From contig JAZDFZ010000025.1 in NCBI GenBank assembly GCA_043807425.1, forward strand, positions 1,827 through 65,826: DNA of 64,000 nucleotides, read 5' to 3'. Position 1 is the first letter of the stretch. Each line of letters starts with the position of its first letter. Shown one piece after another: positions 32,802 to 59,276 of this stretch. The notes below the pieces were generated by a model. The model saw only the letters and a program-made list of their open reading frames with translations, searched no databases and had not been told where the DNA came from. The position numbers and the translations under genes were made by a program. The stretch is from Actinomycetota bacterium (GTDB lineage: Bacteria; Actinomycetota; Geothermincolia; Fen-727; Anoxymicrobiaceae).

Positions 32802-32879
32802 TGGGGTGAACGAGGGGATTCGAACCCCCGACCTCCGGGGCCACAACCCGGCGCTCTAACCAACTGAGCTACGTCCACC
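32802..32879 (-). tRNA. tRNA-His (GUG) with genomically encoded G-1 and CCA
   Basis: Sense: G-GTGGACG-TA-GCTCAGTTGGTTAGAGC-G-CCGGG-TTGTGGC-CCCGG-AGGTC-GGGGG-TTCGAAT-CCCCT-CGTTCAC-C-CCA. 7-bp acceptor stem, anticodon GTG, and the extra 5' G opposite discriminator C73. Confidence 0.9.
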
Positions 32880-35444: not shown

Positions 35445-35521
35445 TGGCGCCCCCGGCAGGACTCGAACCTGCGACCCGCTGCTTAGAAGGCAGCCGCTCT
35501 ATCCAGCTGAGCTACGGGGGC
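35445..35521 (-). tRNA. tRNA-Arg (UCU)
   Basis: Sense: GCCCCCG-TA-GCTCAGCTGGATAGAGC-G-GCTGC-CTTCTAA-GCAGC-GGGTC-GCAGG-TTCGAGT-CCTGC-CGGGGGC-G-CCA. Confidence 0.9.
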
Positions 35522-39242: not shown

Positions 39243-39998
39243 TTACGTGACCCCGGGGGACCGGACCGCCTCGGCGAAGATGGTCACGCAGGCCTTGAGC
39301 GACGGCGTAGCGGAGTGGGCGGCGTACTCCCGCGCCCGGGCGCGCTCCAGCGGTCCGGCGAACGGCATCTCGCGCCGGAACAGCCACTTCCACAGGTAGA
39401 GCCAGATCATGGTGAACTGCTCGACCGCCCCACCGGCGAACCGTACCCGCCGGGCCTCGAATCCGGCCTCCGCCAGGATGGCCTCCAGCCGCTCGCGGGA
39501 GTAGTGCCGGTGGCCCAGGTAGAACGCCGGGTCCAGGGCCCGAGAGAGCAGGCTCTGATAAGGTGTCGAGAGAAGCAACCGGCCCCCCGGCTCGAGGCTC
39601 GCGCTCAAGCGCCTGAGGAAAGCCACCTCGCTCCCCTTCGGCAGGTGCTCCAGGACGTCGAATAGACACACGACCGTGAAAGAGCCCAGGTCGGAGAGGT
39701 CCCCCGAAGCGTCCCGGTGCAGGAACTCGGCGCCCGGGGCCTCTTCCCCGGCGCGCTCTACCAGCGGCTCCGATAGCTCCAGCCCCACCGCTCTGGCGGC
39801 CCCGTGCTCCAGGGCGTACCTCTCGAACCAGCCGAATCCGCATCCGACGTCCAGCGTCGAGGCGCCGGCCAGGTCGCCCGCCATCTCGCAGAGGAAGGCG
39901 TGCCTGCCGGTGAAACGCTGCCCAATCAGATCTCTCTCCAACAGACTCCTCACCGCCCGTCCGTCCTTTCGGCCTATGATACAGGAGTGAAAGATCAC
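39243..39998 (-). CDS. class I SAM-dependent methyltransferase
   Basis: Motif I LDVGCGFGWFERYAL, then VVCLFDVLEHL. Start uncertain: GTG 39998 lies inside a family-4 repeat. TTG 39941 has a GAGGAG SD. Confidence 0.75.
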   Translation of the reverse strand: MIFHSCIIGRKDGRAVRSLLERDLIGQRFTGRHAFLCEMAGDLAGASTLDVGCGFGWFERYALEHGAARAVGLELSEPLVERAGEEAPGAEFLHRDASGDLSDLGSFTVVCLFDVLEHLPKGSEVAFLRRLSASLEPGGRLLLSTPYQSLLSRALDPAFYLGHRHYSRERLEAILAEAGFEARRVRFAGGAVEQFTMIWLYLWKWLFRREMPFAGPLERARAREYAAHSATPSLKACVTIFAEAVRSPGVT

Positions 39999-40117
39999 CT
40001 CAGACCAAAACTTTCATCGTACGAGGTGTCATCGGATATCGGAGGTTTTGAAAGAAATGGTGTGAGGTATTCTTTCAAGCAACGCGTTACGCAAGAATTG
40101 GTTTGAGGTGTTTTTGC
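39989..40117. repeat. family-4 hairpin repeats, locus A (1 minus-oriented and 2 plus-oriented copies)
   Basis: A1 39989-40015 (reverse complement GAAAGttttggtctgaggtgatCTTTC). A2 40050-40076 GAAAGAAatggtgtgaggtATTCTTTC. A3 40091-40117 GCAAGAAttggtttgaggtgTTTTTGC. Confidence 0.8.
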
Positions 40118-40942
40118 GTGGAGGAGATAGAGCAGGCGGCAGGTATCCTTGCAGGGGCGTCGGACGTGCTGGTATTCACCGGGGCCGGGGTCTCCGAGGA
40201 GAGCGGCATCCCCACCTTCAGAGGTACGGGGGGGATCTGGGAGCGGTACCGGCCGACGGTATACGGGACCGTACCCGGGCTGACCGCCGCGTTCGCCTTC
40301 CGCCGCCGGAAGCTCGCGGCGTTCGCGGTCGAGGCCCTCGAGGCTTTTGTGCAGGCCGAGCCCAATCCCGCGCACCTCGCCATCGCCGAGCTGGAACGTA
40401 TGGGCATTGTCACCGCGGTCGCGACCCAGAACGTGGATGGCCTGCACCAGGCCGCCGGCAGCAGCCGCGTCCTGGAGCTGCATGGAAGCGCCTACCGGGT
40501 GCGATGCCGGCGCTGCGGTACCAGGATCCAGGTGCCGCGCGAGAGGCTGGCCCGGGTCGTCAGCGATCTGGAGGGCTCCCCCTCCAGGAGGCGGATGCTG
40601 GCGGTGCTCAGGGAGTACGGGGAAGGCTGTGAGTGTGGTGGCGGGGGCCGCCCGGACGTGGTCTTCTTCGGTGAGTCACTCCCCCCCGGTGTCTTCGAGG
40701 AGGCGGCCGAGCGAGCCTCCCGATGCGACCTCCTGCTGGCCGTGGGGACCTCCGGGCTGGTCATGCCCGCCGCCGGGATCCCCCTGCTGGCCGCCGATTC
40801 CGGCGCGAAGGTCATTGAGGTCAACCCTCTCCCATCGGGCCTGACCAGGCTCGCCGACCTGTTCGTCCCGCTGGCCGCCGGCCGGGCCCTGCCCGCGATC
40901 GTGGAAGCGGTGAAAGCGCGGTCGGACAGAACACCGGTCTGA
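40118..40942 (+). CDS. cobB: NAD-dependent protein deacylase (Sir2 family)
   Basis: [32 protein letters not shown], Zn module CRRCG...CECGG, VVFFGE, VGTSG. GTG 40118 sits 7 nt after GAGGTG. The ORF-track TTG at 40103 lies inside the repeat. Confidence 0.85.
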
Positions 40943-49467: not shown

Positions 49468-49487
49468 TGGTTTTTCACGCGGCGGGT

Positions 49488-49514
49488 GAGAAAAGATGGT
49501 TGAGGTGAATTCTC
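49488..49514 (+). repeat. family-4 hairpin repeat, copy D
   Basis: GAGAAaagatggttgaggtgaaTTCTC, between convergent genes. Overlaps the stop codon of the fusion gene at 49513-49515. Confidence 0.65.
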
Positions 49515-52167
49515 AGGAGGTCATGGTCGGTTTTGGCTTCGCGGCCAGGCGCGCACGCATCAAAGGCGAGGGCTCGCGTCGCCGTCCGGTCCATTCGAAC
49601 CCCTCCATGACCTCCGGGTTCAGGATGTGGAAGGGCGCGCGGCCCTCGAGCAGTGCCTCCAGCTGATCGACGGCGATAGCGCCCTGGTGCGCGGCGGTCT
49701 CGAGGGTATTGCCGCCGATGTGCGGCGTGGCGATCACGTTACCCATGCGCACCAGCCTGTCGTCGGAGGCGGGCGGCTCAACCTCGAACACGTCCAGCGC
49801 CGCGCCGGCCAGACGCCCCGACTCCAGGGCATCCGCCAGCGCCTCGTAGTCCACCAGGGAAGCGCGCGCGGTGTTGATCAGGAAGGCTCCTTCCTTCATT
49901 ATCCCCAGGCGAGACCGGTCGAGAAGACCCCTGGTCTCCTCTTTCGCCGGCGCGTGGACGCTCACTATGTCGCTTCGCTCGAGCAGGGCCTCGAGCGAGA
50001 CCTTCTCCGCGTTCTGAAGCGCCCCGGCACCCTCCTCCACCAGCGGGTCGAAGAAGAGCACCCGCGCACCGCACGCTCTTGAACGGCGGGCAACCGCCCT
50101 CCCCACGCTGCCAAGCCCGATGATGCCGACCGTCTTCCGCCACAGCTCACGGCCCTGGAAGCTGGCGTACGCCGCTCCCATCCTGACAAGGTCCCCCGCC
50201 TCGCCGCCTGGCTCGCGCAGGAAATCCGCCGCCGCGGGGAGTCTGCGCAGCAGCATTATCATGAACCCGAGGGTGAGGTCCGCCACGGCCTCCGCGTTCC
50301 GCCCGGGCGTGTTGAACACCGGGATGCCGAACGCGGTCGCGCTCTCCACGTCAAGGTTCACGGGGTTGACCCTGCAGGAGCAGACTGCCTTGAGGCCCGG
50401 CAGCAGGTCCAGCGCCTCGTAGTCTACGATGTCAATCTCGGTGATGAGCGCGTCGTACCCTTCAAGGGCCTCGGCCAGCTCCCGGCCGCCGGTGATGATG
50501 CGCCCGGCCTCTCGCCACCCCGCGTACTCCACCTCAGCGAGCTGCTTGAGTCTCTCCAGCGCCTCTGCATCCATGGACGCGGTCACCATTACACGCGGCC
50601 GGAAGGAGAGCGGGGCGGCTCCGGCGGGCTCGCCCCTCTCCAGGAGCGCCATGGTCAGCAGTCCGGAAAGGTGCTCGTCACTCGCGGCGCGCAGCGAGCA
50701 CGTCCGGCTCCAGCCCTCATAGAGTCTCGCGTAGACCGATGAATCCGGGCCGGGGGCGTGCCACCTGGCGACACCCGACAGCTCCGCCGCCCCGGCGACC
50801 AGGTCCACGAAGACACCCGCGCCTACACCGGCGCACACCGCCGCACCCAGTGCCGTGGCCTCGCAAACGGCTGGAACAGCCACGGTCTTGCCCGTCACAT
50901 CGCTGACCATCTGCGTCCAGAGCTCGCTCCTCGACATCCCCGCGGATACCATGAGCTCGTCTGTACCCGAGCAGGTCACCTCCATCAGTTGCTCGACGTT
51001 CGCCCTGACCGACAGGGCCACGCCCTCCAGCAGCGAGCGGGCCAGATGCCACCTGCCCTCGGATGCCGGAGTGACCAGGTGCGACATCGAGATGTTCCCG
51101 ACCGGCATGTTGAGCCGGCGGGCGTCGAAGGTGCAGGCACCGAACGTAGAGAACGAGCCCGCCCCGCCCGGCCCGGAGAGCGCGGCCTCCGCGAACATCA
51201 CCGCCACAGGGTTCTCGTAATCGGCGTACACGATCCTGGCAAACCACTCCAGGACCGAGCCAGTGGCGAGCCCGTTACTCTCCAGCACGTAGAGGCCCGG
51301 GACGACGTGCAGCCCGCTCCAGAGCCTTCCCTCGCCGTCCAGCACGATCCCGTCAGTCACCACCTGGACAGGCATGCTTGTGCCGGCCACCACACAGATG
51401 TTTCCCGGCGCGACGGCCCCGGACCCCAGCAGGCCGCACTGGGTGTCGGCCCCACCAGCTGAGATTGTGATCCCCGGCGGGAGACCGAAGTGCCGGGCGG
51501 CCTCCTCCGAGAGCCTCCCGATGGGCGTCCCGGCATCAACGGTCTCGGGGAAGAGCGAAGCGGGGAGGCCTTTCGACTTGACGAGCGCGTACGCCCAGTC
51601 ACGACTCTCCAGGTCGAACAGCAGCGTCTCGGCGGCCTGCGACCTCTCGGCCACGGGCTCCGCGCCGATGCTGCAGGCGATCCAGTCCGACAGGCTCAAG
51701 ACCTTCACACCATGCAATGCATCCGGCTCGCGCTCACCAAGCCACAGCAGCCGGCTGCCCGTGAACAGCGGACCCGGCCAGTGCCCTCCCAGGGTGTAGA
51801 CCTCCTCCCCCTGCTCGGCAGCCCAGCCCAGCGCCTCGCCGACCGCTCTGGCGTCCTGGTTGGGGGTGGCGAAGACGACCGACCCGTCCGAGCTCAGCAG
51901 CACGGTGGAGTGCCTCATGCTCATGACCGCGATCCCGCCTACATCGTCCGGCCTGGCCCCGGAGACGGCCAGCACCTCGCGCGACGCCTCACCGAGCTTG
52001 CGCCGGATGTCCTCCAGATCGAGGTCGTATCCGAGTCCGCCGGTACCCGACGCCGGCGGATGCGTCCAGCGTCGCAGCGCCGTCCATGTCTTCCCGGAGC
52101 CGACGTCCACCAGGAGGCACCGGCCTGAACCGCTGCCCGCGTCGAGTGCCATGAGGTAGTCAGCCAA
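49513..52167 (-). CDS. fusion protein: FGGY carbohydrate kinase + D-isomer-specific 2-hydroxyacid dehydrogenase
   Basis: 884 aa. TTG 52167 with GGGGAGGA SD. N-terminal half: LMALDAGSGSGRCLLVD and an FGGY-like layout. C-terminal half: GKTVGIIGLGSVGRAVARR, LINTARASLVD, GAALDVFEVEP, TPHIGGNT. Confidence 0.8.
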   Translation of the reverse strand: MADYLMALDAGSGSGRCLLVDVGSGKTWTALRRWTHPPASGTGGLGYDLDLEDIRRKLGEASREVLAVSGARPDDVGGIAVMSMRHSTVLLSSDGSVVFATPNQDARAVGEALGWAAEQGEEVYTLGGHWPGPLFTGSRLLWLGEREPDALHGVKVLSLSDWIACSIGAEPVAERSQAAETLLFDLESRDWAYALVKSKGLPASLFPETVDAGTPIGRLSEEAARHFGLPPGITISAGGADTQCGLLGSGAVAPGNICVVAGTSMPVQVVTDGIVLDGEGRLWSGLHVVPGLYVLESNGLATGSVLEWFARIVYADYENPVAVMFAEAALSGPGGAGSFSTFGACTFDARRLNMPVGNISMSHLVTPASEGRWHLARSLLEGVALSVRANVEQLMEVTCSGTDELMVSAGMSRSELWTQMVSDVTGKTVAVPAVCEATALGAAVCAGVGAGVFVDLVAGAAELSGVARWHAPGPDSSVYARLYEGWSRTCSLRAASDEHLSGLLTMALLERGEPAGAAPLSFRPRVMVTASMDAEALERLKQLAEVEYAGWREAGRIITGGRELAEALEGYDALITEIDIVDYEALDLLPGLKAVCSCRVNPVNLDVESATAFGIPVFNTPGRNAEAVADLTLGFMIMLLRRLPAAADFLREPGGEAGDLVRMGAAYASFQGRELWRKTVGIIGLGSVGRAVARRSRACGARVLFFDPLVEEGAGALQNAEKVSLEALLERSDIVSVHAPAKEETRGLLDRSRLGIMKEGAFLINTARASLVDYEALADALESGRLAGAALDVFEVEPPASDDRLVRMGNVIATPHIGGNTLETAAHQGAIAVDQLEALLEGRAPFHILNPEVMEGFEWTGRRREPSPLMRARLAAKPKPTMTS

Positions 52168-54711: not shown

Positions 54712-55619
54712 GCCGCACCACCCCCGCCCGGGTCGAAGGTCACACCATAGAGCTGAGCAACCTCGACAAGGTCCTCTACCCGGCGGTCGGGTTCACCAAG
54801 GGCCAGGTGGTCGACTACTACTCGCGGGTCGCCCCGGCTATACTGCCCCACCTCAAAGACCATCCCCTGACCATGAAGCGCTACCCCGACGGAGTGGAGG
54901 GCGAGTACTTCTACGAGAAGGAGTGCCCGTTCTTCCATCCCGACTGGGTGGATACCGCGACCATGGAGAGCAGGAACGTCAGGGGATCGGTTAGCTTCTG
55001 CGTGCTCAACGGGCAGGCCCCGCTGGTGTGGGTGGCGAACCTGGCCTCCCTCGAGCTGCACGTGCTTCTCTCGAAGAGACAGGACCTCGGGCGCCCGACC
55101 GCGGTCGCCTTCGACCTGGACCCCGGGGAGGGGTCCGATATCCTGACCGCCTGCCGCGCGGCGCTGAAGCTGAGGGACCTGCTGGATGAGATGGGCCTGC
55201 GGTCGTTCGCCAAGTGCTCCGGCGGCAAGGGGATGCATGTGTACGTGCCGCTGAACACGAAGACCGACTTCGAGGCGACCAAGGCCTTCGCCCACGCGGT
55301 GGCGAGCATGATGGAGAAGCGCGAGCCGGACCTCGTGACCTCCAACATGAGGAAGGACCTGCGGAAGGGAAAGATACTGGTCGACTGGAGCCAGAACGAC
55401 ATCCACAAGACCACGGTCTGCGTCTACTCGCTGCGCGCCCGGGAGCACCCCACCGTCTCGACGCCGCTGGAGTGGAAGGAGGTCGAGCAGGGCCTGAAGA
55501 AGGAGGACCCATCTCTCGTCCTCTTCGAGTCAGATCGGGTCCTGGAGCGCATCGAGAAGCACGGCGACCTGTTCGCCGAGGTGCTGACCCTGAAGCAGAA
55601 GCTACCGCAGGTGTCATAA
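54708..55619 (+). CDS. ligD: LigD primase-polymerase domain protein (stand-alone)
   Basis: TTG 54708 overlaps the ku stop (TTGA), with an AAGGAGAAAG SD. LSNLDKVLYP..GFTKGQVVDYY, FDLDPG, SGGKGMHVYVPL. Confidence 0.85.
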   Translation: MSRTTPARVEGHTIELSNLDKVLYPAVGFTKGQVVDYYSRVAPAILPHLKDHPLTMKRYPDGVEGEYFYEKECPFFHPDWVDTATMESRNVRGSVSFCVLNGQAPLVWVANLASLELHVLLSKRQDLGRPTAVAFDLDPGEGSDILTACRAALKLRDLLDEMGLRSFAKCSGGKGMHVYVPLNTKTDFEATKAFAHAVASMMEKREPDLVTSNMRKDLRKGKILVDWSQNDIHKTTVCVYSLRAREHPTVSTPLEWKEVEQGLKKEDPSLVLFESDRVLERIEKHGDLFAEVLTLKQKLPQVS

Positions 55620-55620
55620 T

Positions 55621-55744
55621 ACGCAAAAACCCCTCAAACCGATTCTTGCGTTTCCTCCGCTTTCCGCTTGAAAGACCCGCGATGCAAAAAATGGTTTGAG
55701 GTGATCTTGCACGTAGCAAAAAATGGTTTGAGGTGATCTTGCAC
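55621..55744. repeat. family-4 hairpin repeats, locus B (1 minus-oriented copy and a 2x tandem plus-oriented pair)
   Basis: B1 55621-55651 ACGCAAAAACCCCTCAAACCGATTCTTGCGT, 29/31 identical to the reverse complement of A3 with flanks. B2 55684-55712 and B3 55716-55744 are both exactly GCAAAAAATGGTTTGAGGTGATCTTGCAC. Confidence 0.85.
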
Positions 55745-55751
55745 ATATAAT

Positions 55752-57149
55752 ATGAACATGAGCCATCAATCACTGAGCATACTAGCGGATACGATCTTCG
55801 ACGGTCTCGAGGTGAGGACCGGGCGGTTCGCCGTCGAGGTCTCCTCGGGAGTCATCACCGGCGTGAACGAAAATCCGTCGTTCGGGCGGGGGCGCGACGT
55901 GCTCGACCTCCGGGGTCTTCTTGTGACCCCGGGCCTCATCAACACCCACGCCCACACGGCCCGTGGGGGGATGTTCGATCCCGACGAGATGATCTCGGTA
56001 GACAGCATCGTGCGCAACTTCCGCGACATGCTGCGCGCGGGGGTGACGGCGCTGGGAGAGCTGGGGAACGCCGCCGGGCTCACTTACTCCCTCAGGGAGA
56101 GGTTCAGGAAGAACCCGGAGTGCGGACCGACCATCTTCGGCTGCGGACCGCTTATCACCGCTCCGGGAGGCTACCCGCTGGACTGGATGCCGAAGGCCGT
56201 GGCCATGCTGGGAGTCGCGCTCCCCTGCTCCACACCCGGGGACGCGCGCCGCGCGGTCCGGTCGGTCGTCGCCTCGCGCATGGACGGGATAAAGCTGGCG
56301 ATCATGCACCGCAGCTACTCGGAGAAGCCAATCCCTGCGATGACACTCGAGGCGGCGCGGGCGGTCGTGGACGAGGCCCATGCGCTGGGCAAGAAGGTCC
56401 TCTGCCACGCGCACTACCCGGAGGACTACGACAAGGCCCTGGAGGCGGGCGTCGACGCGCTGGTGCACTCCTGCTTCGAGCCGCTGGAGACGGAGATGGT
56501 CGAGCGGGTCATCGCCTCGGGCGTCTACTACTGCCCCACCCTGTCGATCTTCGAGAACGCCCTGAACGGGGTCGAGGAACGCTGGGACTCGCTACCCCGG
56601 TATCGCGGGCTCGTCTCCGAGAGGGTCGCGCGGGACTGGGACCGTTTCTGCAAGGAGTTCGCAGCCTCGGGCGATATAGTGCCGCCGGGGATAGCCGGTG
56701 GACTGCCCAAGGAGAGGGGCCGCGAGGCGCTCATCAACGCACCGGCCAACTTCAAGATGCTGGCCGACGCCGGGGCGCCGGTGGTCTTCGGGACCGACGC
56801 GTCCTACGGTTTCGGCCTGCTTGGACGCCCCGCGGACGAGCTGGCCTCGATGCAGCGCGCCGGCATGTCCGCGGTCGAATGCCTGAAATCCGCCACCTCG
56901 ACAGCCGCGGAGATGCTCGGCCTCCCCGGCGGGGTTCTCCGCGAGGGAGCCCCGGCCGACCTGGTCGCCTTCGACCCGGCCGCTCTCGACGACGTGTCGC
57001 GAGTCGACGACGTCCGGGCGGTCGTGCGAGCCGGGAGGTTCCTGGACGACTCGCCGTTCCGTTCCGCCCTCAGGGCGGCGCGCACGGCGGTCTCAGTGGC
57101 GGGCGGGATGGCACGGACGCTGGCCTGGGCGGTGACCAAGCGCCCGTGA
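55752..57149 (+). CDS. amidohydrolase-family metallohydrolase
   Basis: 465 aa. VTPGLINTHAHT (HxH), HAHY, VFGTDA. Confidence 0.75.
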   Translation: MNMSHQSLSILADTIFDGLEVRTGRFAVEVSSGVITGVNENPSFGRGRDVLDLRGLLVTPGLINTHAHTARGGMFDPDEMISVDSIVRNFRDMLRAGVTALGELGNAAGLTYSLRERFRKNPECGPTIFGCGPLITAPGGYPLDWMPKAVAMLGVALPCSTPGDARRAVRSVVASRMDGIKLAIMHRSYSEKPIPAMTLEAARAVVDEAHALGKKVLCHAHYPEDYDKALEAGVDALVHSCFEPLETEMVERVIASGVYYCPTLSIFENALNGVEERWDSLPRYRGLVSERVARDWDRFCKEFAASGDIVPPGIAGGLPKERGREALINAPANFKMLADAGAPVVFGTDASYGFGLLGRPADELASMQRAGMSAVECLKSATSTAAEMLGLPGGVLREGAPADLVAFDPAALDDVSRVDDVRAVVRAGRFLDDSPFRSALRAARTAVSVAGGMARTLAWAVTKRP

Positions 57150-59122: not shown

Positions 59123-59180
59123 TATAATCCGAGAATCAACAGCGGATTTGTCGATCGACCCATAGACCGGTAACCGTGGG

Positions 59181-59250
59181 GTCGGACGTTTGCAGTGCCG
59201 TTGGAGCACCTCAATCCATTTGAGGTCATTACGCAATGAAAACGTCCGAC
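59181..59250 (+). other. nested hairpin element 27 nt upstream of the MBL gene
   Basis: Outer 11-bp stem GTCGGACGTTT (59181-59191) / AAACGTCCGAC (59240-59250). Inner hairpin ACCTCAAtccatTTGAGGT (59208-59226), which pairs a family-4-like TTGAGGT core with its complement. Confidence 0.5.
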
Positions 59251-59276
59251 GCCACTCATCATTAAAAAGGAGTGCC

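Follow-up and report, generated by a model that had tools for sequence, protein, structure and literature searches.

Repetitive extragenic palindromic (REP) elements are short bacterial repeats that lie downstream of genes and in unidirectional or convergent spacers, where their termini can supply stop codons (PMC3733652). Each REP family has one REP-associated tyrosine transposase (RAYT), with dimorphic REPs on its flanks (PMC6006769). The term REPtron denotes such a gene lying between inverted REPs of its own class (PMC2817692, PMC6006769), and two inverted REPs that move as a unit constitute a REPIN (PMC3337134, PMC3116915). In this study we analysed a 29-nt hairpin repeat, here called family 4, seven copies of which lie in a 64,000-nt stretch (the window) of contig C25 from G000, a metagenome-assembled genome (MAG) of an uncultured Actinomycetota genus (3.07 Mb, 90 contigs, 64.8% G+C, 78% complete). 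The evidence presented below makes it very probable that family 4 is non-autonomous mobile DNA of the REP type, organised largely in REPIN-like inverted doublets and propagated in trans by RAYT-like Y1 (HUH) transposases.

The family comprises three stem classes, which share the loop core TGAGGT and are all 29 nt long: the TGAGAA class (TGAGAA-AWRATGGTTGAGGTKAA-TTCTCA), the TGAAAG class (TGAAAG-AAATGGTYTGAGGTKTT-CTTTCA, with an additional 'T' variant TGAAAGTTTTGGTCTGAGGTGWTCTTTCA) and the TGCAAG class (TGCAAG-AWNTGGTYTGAGGTGWT-CTTGCA). Loose hairpin scans were too noisy and were superseded by profile searches. A nhmmer profile run over the whole of G000 gave 204 matches, corresponding to 202 non-overlapping copies, and re-found all seven copies that a first-pass annotation of the window had listed, with the ends agreeing to within 1-2 nt. 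A covariance model built from the alignment gave at least 150 matches in G000 and at least 150 in G001, the single same-genus genome (MAG 'Actinomycetota bacterium Modern_marine.mb.309'), and in 39 other relatives from the same family, order or class it gave two weak matches in one genome and none in the remaining 38. The exact TGAGAA-class pattern was present in 67 copies in G000 and 39 in G001 and was absent from the same 39 relatives; a reversed control pattern gave no matches. When 185,579 species genomes were scanned with the exact pattern, the TGAGAA-class element was found almost only in G001. Thus, the family is large and confined to this genus. Within the window by itself, the bare loop 12-mer with one mismatch allowed was matched 7 times versus 4.5 expected, which is not significant; at the genome scale, the full element is overwhelmingly non-random.

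The structure of the element was examined in an ungapped alignment of 96 distinct copies. The stem pairs G4:C30 and A7:T27, the base G14 and the TGAGG of the loop (columns 17-21) were invariant, and compensatory changes were observed at pairs 6:28 (47 AU / 47 GC), 8:26 and 5:29. The covariation score was 0.334 in comparison to 0.211 in shuffled alignments; none of the 500 shuffles attained the observed value, and slid controls did not exceed 0.18. The relatedness of the subfamilies inflates these counts, but the pattern of a variable stem around a fixed loop, which had been described in the first-pass annotation, is nonetheless real. The stem is 6-10 bp long with 76% of the cells paired, which makes the element a short imperfect palindrome of the REP kind, and single hairpins of the TGAAAG class fold at -7 to -8 kcal/mol (z of about -5). 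The combination of an invariant loop with covarying stems suggests a mode of recognition unlike that by the GTAG foot of proteobacterial REPs.

The copies are frequently clustered, with two or more at 70 of the 105 loci. Neighbouring copies were inverted with their GGT strands pointing outward in 57 cases, inverted inward in none and tandem in 40, giving the cluster patterns -+, -++, --+, --++ and --+++ and never +-. Doublets are mostly of a single class, and 16 of the 17 in the TGAAAG class combine one 'A' with one 'T' variant. Both loci A and B of the window had been noticed for having one inverted copy followed by two forward ones, and this -++ order is an ordinary pattern of the family. 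At locus A (here and below, window coordinates are those of the full 29-nt cores and the strand is the one carrying GGT..GAGGT), the TGAAAG-class copies A1 (39988-40016, minus strand; 'T' variant TGAAAGTTTTGGTCTGAGGTGATCTTTCA on that strand) and A2 (40049-40077, plus strand; 'A' variant TGAAAGAAATGGTGTGAGGTATTCTTTCA) form the left and right members of an outward, REPIN-like doublet with a 32-nt spacer (39988-40077). This doublet folds as one long hairpin of -18 kcal/mol (z = -4.6), and the same unit of about 90 nt occurs at approximately 50 places in G001. At locus B, the TGCAAG-class copies B1 (55622-55650, minus strand) and B2 (55683-55711, plus strand) also form an outward doublet; B2 carries the loop sequence GAGGTGATC, and B3 (55715-55743, plus strand) is its tandem duplicate with a period of 32 nt, as had been recognised earlier. 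A CRISPR-like (clustered regularly interspaced short palindromic repeats) array was excluded, because the copies are adjacent (0-14 nt apart) and have no spacers.

Perfectly symmetric variants of the element were seen at C71:97861-97890 and C24:23444-23474 (e.g., TGAGAAAACACCTC|TGAGGTGTTTTCTCA). They look like an inverted doublet with a deleted centre and may be compared with the 'double-foot' REPs of Quentin et al.

The Pfam profile Y1_Tnp, which describes IS200-like HUH tyrosine transposases, detected 7 intact genes in G000 and 13 in G001. Four of these genes, C19:4497-5285 and C52:36375-37088 in G000 and those at L036 and L037 in G001, form one clade whose members are 62-98% identical to each other, the next relatives being at most 58% identical. 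All four have family-4 copies on either side, no more than about 130 nt away and with their GGT strands outward; by a rough estimate that takes about one element per 15 kb, the chance of such two-sided flanking is about 3e-4 per gene. The C19 gene and its 98% identical orthologue at L037 are both flanked by TGAAAG-class copies, the 'A' variant lying 5' and the 'T' variant 3' of the gene in G000 as well as in G001. The C52 gene is flanked by TGAGAA copies, and the L036 gene by a TGGGAA/TGAGAA variant with the loop GGTTTGAGG. The outward order of copies around these genes is also that of the dispersed clusters. Each transposase gene together with its flanking elements of its own class is therefore a REPtron, and the dispersed doublets are REPIN-like; in this uncultured lineage of Actinomycetota, transposases and stem classes form clear, one-to-one cognate pairs. 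Convincing family-4 flanks were not seen at any other Y1 gene examined (there were two matches only, at E = 7-9), and those inspected were accompanied by other repeats.

The proteins encoded by the flanked genes are RAYT-like. They scored 40 bits with Y1_Tnp (cut-off 23), and the best NCBIfam match was REP_Tyr_transpos (REP-associated tyrosine transposase, NF047646), which aligned over the full profile at E = 3e-17. We found 3,844 homologues at E <= 1e-10, and among the matches listed with a source name many are called 'REP element-mobilizing transposase RayT'. In 30 homologues the residues H60, H62, Y119, N123 and P124 were invariant, corresponding to the HUH and Y-x3-N-P motifs. When a profile of these 30 homologues was compared with the PDB, the sole match was E. 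coli TnpA_REP (4ER8), and the alignment paired HyH with HmH, YIvLNPV with YIYINPV and DWPWSSY with DWPFSTF. A profile was needed to reach this structure, as the single-sequence search gave only spurious kinase matches. The transposases are 249-254 aa long, with the motifs GNHYH/GHHYH, YIVLNP and WSSY, and weak matches to LacI, IclR and sigma70 r4 suggest a C-terminal helix-turn-helix (HTH); homologues have HTH_23 or HTH_28. In motifs, length and HTH they resemble the proteins classified as TnpA_Y1 subclass 2.1, Group 1 or TIRYT.

Some other Y1 genes of G000 are associated with repeats of a different kind. Those at C37:10241-11080 and C20:28986-29732 have flanking repeats of the GGGGTCAGG type, which match the motif GGGGWSAS of TIRYTs, and repeats of the GGGGTCAGRCAC kind were seen around both genes. 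G000 thus contains several independent transposase/repeat systems. In addition, C67:54901-55680 and C75:1521-2285 belong to a divergent Y1-like clade with the motif FHV.SHG...THYHLIVDT and have no family-4 copies nearby; one of these two genes is preceded by three tandem 16-nt repeats (AGCATAGCAAGCTAC) located just upstream.

By analogy with E. coli TnpA_REP, the amplification of family 4 could proceed as follows. The RAYT-like Y1 transposases of the same genome would propagate the elements in trans, the single-stranded 29-nt element folding into a hairpin. Recognition by the transposase probably relies on what is invariant in this hairpin, namely the G:C and A:T stem pairs and the TGAGGT loop. 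Which of the paralogous transposases serves a given subfamily is probably set by the class-specific stem pairs (TGAGAA, TGAAAG, TGCAAG), and cleavage followed by strand transfer would place copies of single elements or doublets at new intergenic positions. Copies persist where they do little harm, mostly right after a stop codon or in the spacer of two convergent genes, and the neighbouring gene often uses their TGA...TCA ends as its stop. The match between the GAGGT(G) loop and the Shine-Dalgarno (SD) sequence is a by-product; a few copies that adjoin a start codon in the right orientation have probably been co-opted as SD, as at cobB and coaX.

The genomic placement of the copies was assessed using 2,621 genes called in G000, which has a coding fraction of about 90%, with a custom codon-usage finder whose individual start codons are approximate. 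Intergenic regions contained 199 of the 204 nhmmer matches (97.5%). The convergent spacers held 38 of the 98 clusters (39%) versus 13% of all spacers, a three-fold enrichment, and clusters were depleted in divergent spacers (8 of 98). The distance from a cluster edge to the stop codon it faced had a median of 3 nt, with 74 of 128 edges lying within 5 nt, and the distance to a facing start codon had a median of 49.5 nt (Mann-Whitney p = 1e-9 for stops versus starts). Moreover, in 38 copies the TCA at the end of the element reads, on the opposite strand, as the TGA stop of the neighbouring gene. Copy D of the window (49487-49515, plus strand, TGAGAA class) is one of them: it lies between convergent genes, its TCA overlaps the stop of the minus-strand FGGY-kinase/2-hydroxyacid-dehydrogenase gene (49513-52167), and the plus-strand CMD-family gene ends 19 nt to its left. 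B1 lies 2 nt past the stop codon (TAA, 55617-55619) of the gene for the LigD primase-polymerase, and in the mRNA sense of that gene it reads ACC..CTCAAACC. An apparent strand rule relative to the upstream gene (71 stops on one side versus 7 on the other) was dropped, since the inner sides of outward doublets can never touch a gene. For gene calling it is relevant that the ends of the elements supply 38 stop codons and a few SD or start contexts.

The closeness of the copies to stop codons, the sharing of the TGA, the excess in convergent spacers and the retention of many copies in the same position in both species could also be explained if the hairpins were host 3'-end signals maintained by selection (terminators, 3'-UTR hairpins protecting against exonucleases, or elements tuning translation termination) and the transposases were incidental. 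Secondary roles of this sort are documented for E. coli REPs (PMC6006769). However, the stems are AT-rich and weak and are not followed by the U-tract of an intrinsic terminator, singletons in tandem-gene spacers showed no significant orientation bias (13 versus 6, p = 0.17), eight clusters lie in divergent (promoter) spacers, and the number of copies per site varies freely between the species. We therefore consider selection for 3'-end signals a very improbable origin of the family. A 3'-end role is compatible with a REP-type family as a secondary co-option, and some copies may have such a role at the RNA level; it does not replace mobility as the origin of the family.

The palindromic arms, the class-specific half-sites and the invariant positions would also suit double-stranded operators of a dimeric regulator, with TGAAAG and CTTTCA as half-sites 17 bp apart and the classes reflecting paralogous regulators. 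Yet operators would be expected at promoters rather than mostly at gene 3' ends and in convergent spacers, the sites number about 200 and form tandem or inverted arrays, and their conserved centre is strongly asymmetric. Moreover, the compensatory changes in the stem keep the pairing and not the half-site sequence, and flanking of Y1 transposase genes is not expected of operators. There is, in our opinion, next to no likelihood that the family consists of operators.

The first-pass annotation had proposed that the loop is a super-SD, complementary to the 3' end of 16S rRNA, and acts as a standby or decoy site for the ribosome or, in 5' leaders, as a switch that sequesters the SD. The complementarity itself holds against the 16S rRNA of the same-genus genome. 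No 16S gene was found in the 78% complete G000, but since the 16S rRNA of G001 ends in ...GGATCACCTCCTTTCT (canonical ...GATCACCTCCTTTCT), GAGGTGATC is a perfect 9-nt complement to it. However, only 6 of the 202 copies contain this 9-mer; GAGGTGA is present in 61, GAGGTG in 88 and GAGGT in 197. According to a rough estimate, a conserved loop of 11-13 nt would hold some SD-region 5-mer by chance at about the 10% level. In about five copies, GAGGT(G) is located 7-9 nt upstream of a start codon, and these plausibly donate the SD. At locus A, the GAGGTG (40105-40110) of the TGCAAG-class copy A3 (40090-40118, plus strand) precedes the cobB GTG by 7 nt, and A3 ends on the initial G of this codon. 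The first-pass annotation had taken A3 for a real SD, and this is plausible, as the gene finder picked the same start for the Sir2/CobB deacetylase gene (40118-40942, plus strand; Pfam SIR2 2e-43) and the SIR2 profile begins at residue 22. A clearer example is outside the window, where the nadC-coaX spacer (C71:87061-87121) is built solely from two family-4 copies in tandem: the first gives the TGA of nadC, and the second gives GAGGTGA, then 6 nt, then the A of the coaX ATG. The N-terminus of coaX was confirmed by Pfam, and the arrangement is kept in G001.

As a function of the family, on the other hand, a standby site, decoy or switch is refuted by the placement of the copies, which is biased to stops and not to starts. 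In the genome-wide check start codons were not favoured: of the 199 intergenic copies, only 12 had a called start in the 15 nt that follow the GGT strand downstream. The enrichment between convergent genes concerns spacers in which leaders do not exist, and for copies adjoining genes the mRNA sense is usually the complement, ACCTCA. For B3, the distance from the end of GAGGTG to the conserved amidohydrolase start (ATG, 55758) is 24 nt, more than an SD allows. Inverted and forward copies had been suggested to base-pair with each other, and the A1-A2 doublet does fold, but the same REPIN doublet hairpin occurs at dozens of loci and is not a leader-specific switch. In addition, copies have been gained and lost between the sister species while the genes were retained, and the association with transposases accounts for the family without involving translation. 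We thus regard an RNA-level translation device as extremely unlikely, and since few copies are correctly spaced and B3 is too far from its start, the donation of an SD is a plausible occasional co-option and not the function of the family. The alternative offered in the same annotation, a plain REP family whose loops happen to resemble an SD, is borne out by the distribution of the copies and by the flanked transposases. The approximately 200 intergenic hairpins in G000 and at least 150 in G001 are explained as REP/REPIN-type mobile DNA, and hence there is no need to annotate them as riboswitch-like leaders or super-SD elements.

HTH-containing RAYTs of subclass 2.1 are the largest and most widespread RAYT group. 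This subclass is Group 1 of Bertels and is largely the same as the TIRYTs (PMC6006769, PMC5581495, PMC3733652). Family 4 behaves like the REP/REPIN-RAYT systems, such as the E. coli REP Y/Z with YafM and the REPINs of Pseudomonas fluorescens (PMC2817692, PMC3116915, PMC3479197, PMC8266576), and corresponds to their structural definition in everything except the GT[AG]G foot. The likeness extends to a short imperfect palindrome with hundreds of copies outside genes, to inverted doublets whose two members are dimorphic variants, to clusters, to one flanked Y1 gene per class with several class/transposase pairs per genome, and to a lineage-restricted, vertically inherited population that prefers gene 3' ends and donates stops. 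In contrast to the known systems, the invariance of family 4 resides in the TGAGGT loop and two stem pairs and not in a GT[AG]G foot, its host is an Actinomycetota and not a member of the Proteobacteria, and its transposases have a C-terminal HTH extension and fall below the NCBI curated RAYT cut-off. With TIRtrons and TIRYTs it shares a protein of similar length (~240-260 aa) with NH[YF]H, Y[IV]xLNP, the 'SS' tail and a C-terminal HTH, and some TIR families likewise show self-complementarity, moderate abundance and dimers or clusters. The flanks of TIRYT genes, however, are GGGGWSAS inverted repeats, of which some are self-complementary and moderately abundant (Di Nocera 2013, PMC3733652), whereas those of family 4 are true TGAGGT-loop hairpins in about 200 copies. 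The IS200/IS605 elements have the same Y1/HUH catalytic fold and a single-stranded DNA hairpin as substrate in their subterminal hairpins; here, the flanking hairpins are inverted instead of lying on the same strand, and it is the hairpins and not the gene that have been amplified. SD-sequestering leaders and standby sites have in common with family 4 only a GAGGT(G) loop complementary to the 16S 3' end and a few copies at SD distance; family 4 lacks leader-specific placement, its copies being located mostly at 3' ends or in convergent spacers and usually in the opposite sense.

Several observations weigh against the view that family 4 is a REP-type family mobilised by RAYT-like transposases. 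The 5' GT[AG]G foot that is canonical for classical REPs is missing; R-TGA (GTGA or ATGA) takes its place, neither GTAG nor GTGG being present, and REP types without GTAG have been described for other subclasses (PMC6006769). Subclass 2.1, which the transposases resemble, was scored 'REP: no', with no REP-like sequences nearby (Quentin 2018, PMC6006769), and the 16-mer flanking Group 1 RAYTs had only about 12 occurrences (Bertels 2017, PMC5581495). The scores with NF047646, 62.8 and 60.9 bits, are under its curated cut-off of 80. Single hairpins of the TGAGAA class are weak (-2.3 kcal/mol, z = -1.2), and the 78% complete G000 yielded no transposase cognate to the TGCAAG class. Furthermore, the home-made gene finder leaves individual start codons uncertain, and a clean pair of empty and filled sites, sought between the two species, was not found, their spacers being too different.

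The novelty of the system is modest and consists in a large, class-specific hairpin population tied to transposases that resemble a reportedly REP-less group. The host phylum is unmentioned in the REP/RAYT surveys used for comparison, and both the donation of stop codons and the preference for unidirectional or convergent spacers were already known for REPs (PMC3733652). A broader proposal, to which we would give slightly less than an even chance, is that HTH-RAYTs of subclass 2.1 sustain large REPIN populations, each specific to a class, by recognising the invariant loop and not a GTAG foot, and that in this genus the host has begun to use the ends of the elements as punctuation (TGA stops and GAGGTG-N7-start as SD).

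The comparison of G000 with G001, whose syntenic DNA is about 90-95% identical and orthologous spacers about 92%, revealed turnover of the family. At 24 orthologous element sites, about half had identical copies, and the rest differed by whole units or inverted doublets, which appear beside existing copies. Therefore, the family has been active or recombining since the species split. At locus B, the LigD gene is followed by a TGCAAG-class copy in G000 and by a TGAAAG-class copy in G001, in both cases 1-2 nt from the stop, and B2 and B3 are absent in G001. At locus A, A1 and the spacer are kept in G001, and A2 and A3 have merged to give a single hybrid copy, which is followed by the last few codons of cobB; the rest of that gene is deleted at the orthologous locus L049 (versus window 40072-40934). 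Recombination of neighbouring copies, accompanied by a deletion, seems to underlie the loss of cobB and A3. A1 had been placed at the start of the methyltransferase gene on the other strand, but it probably lies about 40 nt upstream of it, since a GTG at about 39947 leaves the Pfam methyltransferase domains complete.

The sequence at 59208-59226 had been regarded as a variant member of family 4. It belongs instead to a different repeat of about 90 nt (59160-59262) with the arms GGGGTCGGACGTTT...AAACGTCCGAC. The arm motif of this repeat occurs 52 times in G000 (at most one mismatch, both strands), and full-length matches at 83-87% identity were found on C15, C44, C34, C21 and C70. The members of this separate family have the arms GTGGGGTCGGACGTTT ... 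AAACGTCCGACGCCAC and a variable centre (e.g., C15:20907-20995 and C36:3364-3449), and in G001 family-4 copies are inserted within one of these elements.

A scan of the window at the Rfam gathering thresholds gave two tRNA genes, both on the minus strand (32805-32878 and 35448-35521), and no other match. An archaeal origin with a promoter or terminator element was also considered and rejected, the same-genus G001 being an Actinomycetota with a bacterial 16S. No RNA sequencing runs containing the region were found; DNA runs contained only relatives and one identical contig of 283 nt. This contig, from the biofilm-metagenome run X2, which may be the sample from which G000 came, is identical to locus B (window 55508-55790), and the same run also holds a more abundant relative, about 94% identical, which diverges just before the end of the LigD gene.

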